Of a stretch of DNA of 64,000 bases, positions 37,185-38,115 are shown piece by piece. Source of the DNA: Schmidtea polychroa (taxonomy: Eukaryota); contig CM097885.1 in NCBI GenBank assembly GCA_044892525.1, positions 6,636,001 to 6,700,000 of the forward strand. Reading direction: 5' to 3'. Under the pieces are notes generated by a model. It saw only the letters and a program-made list of their open reading frames with translations. It did not search any database and was not told where the DNA came from. The position numbers and the translations under genes are program-made. Position 1 is the stretch's first letter; the number at the start of each line of letters is the position of its first letter.

Positions 37185-38115
37185 TCAATTAGCATATAGT
37201 TTAAATAAACCAATGTTGAAACGATTTCCAACAAGACCATACAAAACAATTGGAAACAATGATGTATGGCAAATGGATTTGATGGAAATGATACCTTATT
37301 CAAAAATTAACAAGGGGTACAAATATATTCTGACTTGTATAGATGTTTTTAATAGATATGCTCGTGCTGTTCCTACAAAAACTAAATCTGCAAATGAAAT
37401 GGCTGATGCGATAAAAGAAATGTTTGCAGATGGTAAACCTATTAATTTACAAACGGATTTAGGTAATTAAATTTAATTAATTAATTTTTAAATATATGAT
37501 TTAGGTAAAGAATTTTATAACAGCAAAGTTAAAGAGGTTATCAAAGGAATAAACCACTACTCAGTATTTTCTCAGTTCAAAGCTGCTCATGTAGAACGAT
37601 TTAATCGAACTTTAAGAGATCGTTTGAAAAAATATTTTGTATATCAAGGTAATAAAACTTGGATAAATGTTTTGCCAAAAATTATTTTCAGTTACAATCA
37701 TTCACCACACAGAGGATTAAAAGGACAAACCCCTGCTGATTTTACTAAAAATCAACCAAAGTTAGAGAAAATCAATAAACCGAAATACAAGGTTGGTGAT
37801 CATGTAAGAATTAGTAAAATCAATTCTTCACCATTCATCAAAAACTTTGATAATAATTGGAATGATGAAGTATATCAAAGTTTTAAAATCGATACAAAAC
37901 AGAATCCTGTCATGTATGTGATAGTTGATCATTAAAACAAACCAATCACTGGTAAATTCTATGAACAAGAACTCCAAGTAATTCCTGCTCCTACAATATT
38001 TAGAATTCAAAAGATTTTAAAAACCAAAAAAGATGGTAAATATAAACAATACTATGTTAAATGGCATGGATATGAAACTCCATCTTGGATATCCGAAAAT
38101 CAATTGATTAAATAA
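36979..38115 (+). pseudogene. Maverick retroviral-type integrase with chromodomain; 42-nt intron; premature stop
   Basis: WQMDL, QTDLG|KEFYN (intron 37463-37504), VERFNRTL (DDE); TAA at 37933-37935; YYVKWHGY chromodomain. Confidence 0.92.

Follow-up and report, generated by a model that had tools for sequence, protein, structure and literature searches.

A probable spliceosomal intron at one codon of two Maverick integrases, and a second intron in the protease gene of the same lineage

The core genes of Mavericks (Polintons) are usually described as intronless. In vertebrates, intact elements are reported without introns in the passages available from PMC8097293, which cites Kapitonov and Jurka 2006 for intronless Mavericks, and in a Caenorhabditis element, according to the excerpts of 10.1101/2022.07.12.499685, the core genes are intronless and introns occur in cargo genes only; the initial annotation of the present locus gave this description too, and both sources indeed say so. 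Among comparable systems, dinoflagellate maverick-polinton-like elements bear introners, namely intron-forming inserts inside such elements that are mobile and mostly acquired after integration (PMC11957031, in the part available), and group I introns are mentioned for Polinton-like viruses in the excerpt of PMC12220804. Ginger DNA transposons encode transposases of an integrase-like type, the genes of which contain 1-4 introns, mostly GT-AG, in conserved positions, as stated in the accessible portion of PMC2836005; unlike Mavericks, they are simple cut-and-paste elements without polymerase or capsid genes. In the Drosophila P element, the retention of the intron IVS3 truncates the integration enzyme (PMC7776569, in part). 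In the literature searched, which consisted mostly of open-access texts without supplements or Repbase and was available in part, there is no report of heritable spliceosomal introns in animal Maverick core genes; the excerpts of PMC8502044, PMC10748475, PMC6431247, PMC5803895, PMC11296320, 10.1101/2025.02.07.637071 and 10.1101/2024.03.25.586562 contain no relevant passage.

The locus described here resembles the animal Mavericks (polintoviruses, adintoviruses) in its gene content, as it carries an rve integrase with a C-terminal chromodomain, a protein-primed PolB, an A32-like ATPase and an adenain-like protease, together with a probable double-jelly-roll capsid and an adenovirus pX-like ORF. 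It differs from the described Mavericks, whose core genes are intronless (a described trait, not a definitional one), in that the integrase and the protease each contain a heritable intron. Unlike the dinoflagellate introners, these introns are short, unalike, fixed in position, inherited along the element tree and found in an animal. The P element, for its part, has an unrelated transposase, and its IVS3 regulation has been shown by experiment, whereas here regulation is only a possibility.

The window, namely the whole stretch of 64,000 nucleotides that was analysed, is AT-rich (20-42% GC in 2-kb bins), and from about 29 kb onward it contains nested, decayed Maverick elements, the features of which are collected in Table 1. 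Both integrase copies are of the retroviral-like DDE type, with rve matches above the curated cut-off, and exon 2 of copy 1 is broken by a premature stop at 37933-37935. The ATPase pieces of the window have 45-82% identity to the ORFs of close relatives, among which that of locus L008 matches Pox_A32 (E 7.6e-7); the piece upstream of integrase copy 1 is without its N-terminal half, and an N-terminal half is found at 30724-31104. The probable capsid gene of element 2 is frameshifted near 57021-57086 with no intron seen, while the capsid ORFs of four relatives are continuous over 415-431 aa; no Pfam match was obtained for the window pieces or for any of the four relatives' ORFs. For the capsid ORF of L008, the Atlas look-alikes stand at 0.98, in clusters where 22-24% of the members carry DJR-like_dom and with a recognition of 2160, which is under the 2300 mark. 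The AGT-repeat is an end motif of Mavericks, and terminus-like motifs occur at 21855 (+), 59885 (+) and 61796 (+), though in these nested and broken elements no pair of ends is assignable to either integrase.

Table 1. Positions of the Maverick features in the window
Feature	Position	Strand	Description
Packaging ATPase, C-terminal part, upstream of integrase copy 1	35974..36390	+	62-82% identity to ATPase ORFs of close relatives
Integrase copy 1, exon 1	36979..37462	+	start codon to the two catalytic Asp motifs; rve PF00665, E 1.1e-8
Integrase copy 1, intron	37463-37504	+	42 nt, GT..AG, 93% AT, 5' site GTAATT
Integrase copy 1, exon 2	37505..38115	+	holds the catalytic Glu motif and a C-terminal chromodomain; matches to rve_3 (E 7.6e-5) and Chromo (E 6.6e-5), each under curated cut-off
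Protein-primed PolB, element 2	47806..51678	-	three broken pieces; DNA_pol_B_2 E 2.8e-28 at 48223-50220
Protease, exon 2	55783..56118	-	Peptidase_C5 E 3.3e-5; premature stop at 55806-55808
Protease, predicted intron	56119..56159	-	41 nt, phase 2 in codon 2, GTAAG..AG, 5' site GTAAGA
Protease, first coding exon	56160..56164	-	five bases, start codon and two bases; adenain-like protease
Probable major capsid gene, element 2	56227..57493	-	ORFs of 415-431 aa in relatives are 40-52% identical
Integrase copy 2, exon 2	58709..59343	-	open through chromodomain end; Chromo E 0.001, under cut-off
Integrase copy 2, intron	59386-59344	-	43 nt, GT..AG, 93% AT, 5' site GTAAAA
Integrase copy 2, exon 1	59387..59831	-	rve E 5.5e-10

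In both integrases the insert interrupts QTDLG|KEFYN in phase 1, after the first base of the Gly codon, and the coordinates, lengths, phase and ends given in the initial annotation have all been verified. Its placement just after the second catalytic Asp is also borne out, as in an alignment to solved retroviral integrases made through the homologue P0003, QTDLG corresponds to LQTDNG (4pa1_A) and VERFN to VENVN. We take the Asp of QTDLG to be the second catalytic Asp and the motif aligned with VERFN to hold the catalytic Glu, assuming the established roles of these residues, and on this reading the insert separates the second Asp from the Glu, with the Glu motif in exon 2. The size agreement with the introns of the host myosin gene was measured at 17402..18698 (+), where five introns placed by hand from the translation have 43, 52, 35, 709 and 41 nt; it holds for the four short ones (35-52 nt), the remaining one being far longer. 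The inserts thus have the GT-AG ends and the host-like size of a U2-type intron, and their removal restores collinearity with the homologues. The insertion site reads AG|GT in copy 1 and also in some intronless relatives such as L001. Meanwhile the likeness between the two intron sequences is at the level of shuffles (p = 0.28, 2000 shuffles), which agrees with the earlier remark that the sequences have diverged while the position is fixed. An in-frame stop, to which that annotation had also pointed, is indeed present within the first six codons of each insert, but it carries no evidential weight because it is expected by chance at 93% AT (83-86% of 5000 shuffles contain one), and its reading as a sign of design was discarded. 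Retention would shift the frame in copy 2, whereas the insert of copy 1 is a multiple of three. An origin of the intron by tandem duplication was also considered and found unsupported (p = 0.09 and 0.14, 300 shuffles), a host intron scoring equally high.

The homologues show what the integrase looks like without the insert. Exon 2 as query yielded 460 proteins out of 509 candidates, and in 116 of the best-ranked 120, which were examined, QTDxG-KEF (or LEF) is contiguous with nothing in between, the other four (P0001, P0002, P0046 and P0061) falling short of the site. No extra residues thus occur in any of the 116 homologues that span the interval, where coding sequence would have spoken against an intron. 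In DNA, moreover, all of the 21 metagenome loci that span the site (of 23 loci, many of them near-duplicates) are intronless. Since homologues and loci run uninterrupted through QTDxG-KEF, the insert is non-coding and derived. The DNA pattern of an intron-split integrase gave one match in viral_contigs and two in genome_contigs, all three unrelated to integrase, and viral_contigs held no confirmed relatives for integrase exon 2, capsid or PolB.

The two copies are not recent duplicates of each other but old families, with synonymous sites near saturation. They share 83% identity in the conserved exon blocks and differ at 29 of 55 four-fold sites, with a dS of 1.0 in exon 1 and of 0.85 and 1.5 in two blocks of exon 2, while dN/dS (Nei-Gojobori) is 0.076 in exon 1 and 0.085 in each of the two exon 2 blocks. 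Further members of the intron type are indicated by the ends of predicted proteins. Among 30 proteins found with exon 1, 19 continue normally, seven are without the motif, one ends at the motif, one jumps and two stop just behind it, namely P0121, which is copy-1-like and ends QTDLGN, and P0122, a JGI protein that ends QTDLGKIII. These ends, 1-4 residues past QTDLG, look like a gene caller reading into an unspliced intron, the intron itself being deduced from the protein ends. By equal nucleotide size only, P0122 and P0001 (each on a 3759-nt JGI contig) were taken as exons 1 and 2 of a single gene, and so were P0121 and P0046 (each on a 1550-nt contig). P0122 and P0001 are both 82% identical to copy 2 and would represent a third intron-type family, of metagenome origin. 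No information comes from P0125 and P0144, which end at the motif, and P0124, where QTDLG is followed directly by the C-terminus, was read as a deletion and set aside as intron evidence.

In a midpoint-rooted tree built from 69 exon-2 rows (the two window copies, P0001-P0060 and seven others of the 120 proteins, with 53 left out), copy 1, copy 2, P0001, P0046 and P0002 form one clade with support 100/99, which is nested in a 99/94 group together with 14 intronless rows. P0003 and P0047 are among the nearest intronless sisters, which are known as proteins. P0002 falls in this clade, yet its gene model is chimeric and without the site; in it, an in-clade integrase exon 2 follows a Prp19-like N-terminus (PF08606), probably through a mis-joined prediction. 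As the intron-type sequences make up one clade among intronless relatives, a single gain on the stem of the clade is the simplest history. The ratios of nonsynonymous to synonymous change argue for long purifying selection on both exons since the gain, and such selection on a gene that is interrupted by a stop, in one family with a frameshift as well, requires removal of the insert, which implies splicing.

Besides the integrase, the protease gene of element 2 is also interrupted. Its ORF has no in-frame start codon, and removing a stretch of 41 nt opens the frame to an upstream start. An intron at the same codon is seen in L007 9199-9237, L008 5603-5641, L017 2903-2941 and L011 7455-7494, always with 39-40 nt and GTAAGT, L008 and L017 being near-copies; these are four of the seven metagenome loci with a protease match, of which L015 and L022 start in frame without an intron and the seventh is L021. 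Moreover P0154, one of nine protease homologues, begins M-N-S-V-Q, which is the start predicted by intron removal, and several others start as a gene call on the unspliced sequence would, as judged from protein sequences only. All five 5' sites of the protease intron have a G at position +5, which is absent from both integrase ones. Where the loci with the protease intron have an integrase in the data, it is intronless, and since the protease intron is common to such loci, it is older than that of the integrase and more widely distributed. The codon-2 intron is new here, and with it the finding concerns a lineage instead of a single gene. The earlier description of an intronised lineage is thereby well matched, with a single gain on a well-supported branch, selection on both exons and a second, older intron in the protease.

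Possible transcripts were looked for in contigs, not reads, of the runs X1, X2, X3 and X5, which were compared with positions 47700-60100 at a likeness of at least 80%, coverage gaps not being counted as absence. X2 (organism A) and X3 (organism B, another organism) are only guessed to be RNA, none of the runs covering 56200-59900 being recorded as such. In X1, which has coverage in 30 of 30 bins, the behaviour is that of DNA. In X3 a contig joins 59343 to 59389 with one letter between at a depth of 35; the 3' side is exact, and a net 44 bases are removed against 43 for a clean splice, that is, 1 nt off. This contig probably comes from within the clade, since the identity on either flank does not exceed 73% in the 12 intronless loci that were compared, which is less than the 80% threshold. 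The joint is what splicing might leave behind, but it could also be an intronless or decayed DNA copy. In X2, a gapless 354-nt contig over 59053-59406 keeps the whole integrase intron with only 20 nt beyond it, and may be DNA, antisense or read-through RNA. Among the joints listed for these contigs, beyond which there are 103 more (94 and 9), no clean splice junction is present at the integrase intron of copy 2, and no joint at all at the protease intron. The comparison contains no positive control, because copy 1 and the host introns are located outside 47700-60100.

We consider it highly probable that these inserts are ordinary spliceosomal introns in Maverick core genes and that the host spliceosome removes both from nuclear transcripts. 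The carrier would be an active Maverick/Polinton (adintovirus-like) lineage of an AT-rich animal. Its protease gene would have been the first to acquire an intron, in codon 2; the integrase gene would have followed with a single gain at an AG|GT-type site, in the common ancestor of a sub-clade from which at least three families have since diverged. Transcription would take place in the nucleus, and once these introns of host size were excised, the integrase-chromodomain protein and the protease would both be normal. With the integrase intron retained, translation would end a few codons past the second Asp, and because the catalytic Glu is in exon 2, the unspliced RNA would give a dead enzyme, a product of about 150-160 residues without Glu or chromodomain that is probably degraded; if the protease intron were retained, the start codon would be separated from its frame. 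As retention breaks both genes, integration and capsid maturation would depend on host splicing, and the lineage probably needs the host splicing machinery to integrate and to mature. The suggestion of the initial annotation that splicing could gate integration is therefore acceptable in the plain sense that unspliced RNA would be unable to make the DDE enzyme, whereas a regulated gate would go beyond this sense. Although both elements in the window are decayed, which speaks against the spliced reading, we regard the integrase insert as a real, derived and probably functional intron.

A regulated gate would extend this reading: the retention of the integrase intron might be controlled by tissue or by piRNAs, as in P-element IVS3, with active integrase only in some cells (e.g. 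germ or stem cells), and the truncated product might act as a repressor. We think this rather unlikely. It is true that the intron parts D-D from E, that both integrase 5' sites are without the +5 G found in the protease intron, that a retained form exists in X2 (if this is RNA), and that there is a precedent, since IVS3 retention is promoted by piRNAs and yields a 66-kDa repressor according to the passages available from PMC7776569. But the intron sequence is not conserved between the families (p = 0.28), one of the five host introns is without the +5 G as well, the stop is expected by chance, and most relatives manage intron-free; the repressor role in particular becomes less plausible because Maverick integrases are without an N-terminal zinc finger (PMC2836005, accessible portion). 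A wider form of the idea, for which we see only a small chance, would be a polintovirus lineage with a constitutive protease intron and a younger, weak-site integrase intron, the retention of which, controlled by tissue or by piRNAs, would decide whether the element lives as an integrating transposon or as a non-integrating virus, a convergence with P-element IVS3.

Other explanations do without splicing of an inherited intron. The inserts might have entered dead copies independently after integration, as introner-like or random AT-rich sequences at a favoured AG|GT, and have no role; the AG|GT of copy 1 and of relatives such as L001, the unlikeness of the two introns and the mostly post-integration introners of dinoflagellate maverick-polinton-like elements (PMC11957031, in part) would suit such a history. 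It is nonetheless quite improbable, as every intron-type sequence falls in one clade and none outside, so that three families would mean three strikes at one base, while P0046/P0121 shows an uninterrupted copy-1-type exon 2 beside an intron-type exon-1 end, and the protease intron is common to distant loci. That the insert kills the integrase, and that non-autonomous elements were moved by intronless helpers, is very improbable: both window elements are decayed and intronless relatives are common, but a dN/dS of about 0.08 on both sides since the family split is unexpected for a dead gene. Finally, the insert might be bridged at translation by read-through, hopping or frameshift, for which the 42 nt of copy 1, a multiple of three, may be cited. 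Since the 43 nt of copy 2 would then need a second, distinct recoding event, and since GT-AG ends at the exact codon split, a host-intron size and homologues with no extra residues all tell against it, we give this explanation hardly any credit.

Such introns matter for the way Mavericks are found. Maverick mining uses intron-blind gene callers that assume no introns (PMC10120064, passages available), and an intact element has been defined by intronless ORFs (PMC8097293, likewise in part). Intron-bearing lineages would then be scored as decayed, with their proteases truncated. Moreover, heritable spliceosomal introns imply nuclear transcription and host splicing, and this bears on the question of whether Mavericks are autonomous viruses of the nucleus or, instead, parasitise giant viruses of the cytoplasm. 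Short AT-rich introns may also limit the hosts able to express such elements. For intron evolution, the integrase would offer a case of a dated intron gain in a mobile element, bracketed by intronless sisters.

Several further observations were made on the elements. A nested Maverick insertion is suggested by the terminus-like motif at 59885, as this motif lies immediately upstream of integrase copy 2, at the point where the likeness to copy 1 stops. X3 and X2 have poly(T) loose ends at 57483 (a short way upstream of the start of the capsid gene), 59684 and 59708, and these suggest minus-strand RNA of element 2 that is polyadenylated or oligo-dT-primed. The start of a third PolB is near 62440. 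In the PolB genes at about 51670 (-) and 62465 (+), a conserved stretch lies upstream of the first in-frame ATG and runs from an AG|GT after an AT-rich tract. In adenovirus the polymerase has an upstream exon joined by splicing, and the AG|GT of both PolB genes may be a candidate splice acceptor for an unseen upstream exon. Upstream of PolB, a 2860-bp element (51795-54654) with short inverted ends and an apparent target duplication contains a 748-aa ORF without Pfam match, and run X5 shows its empty site as well as a high depth over it. TBP-like genes at 30232-30693 and 35605-35979 (-) (PF00352, E about 1e-15) stand head to head with the ATPase, and because the relatives L006, L007 and L015 carry one too, this is taken as a gene of the lineage. 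Downstream of element 1, a RING-finger ORF at 40811-41401 (+) (zf-C3HC4_3, E 3e-9) is part of a stretch that recurs at 26761-27388 and is possibly a cargo gene. By eye, an ORF of the related element L007 (225-722) resembles a ubiquitin-conjugating enzyme, and one of L011 (919-1260) a dual-specificity phosphatase.

The window also holds host genes and other repeats. The host myosin gene is situated near 17-19 kb (Myosin_head, E 1.5e-4), and in the Atlas its exon is classed as a myosin N-terminus. Judged by AT content and intron size, the host may be a flatworm. Retroelement fragments comprise a reverse transcriptase at 44538-45917 (-) (RVT_1, E 3e-32), a LINE-like piece at 61224-61676 (-), which is our own reading with no Pfam match, and RNase H and protease pieces at 15584-16211. 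A fragment of a Dishevelled-specific domain at 13461-13799 (+) (E 1.8e-10) is a piece of a host gene, and it is adjoined by a 1.4-kb inverted duplication, the two arms of which (13758-15199 and 25322-26762) are 99.7% identical.
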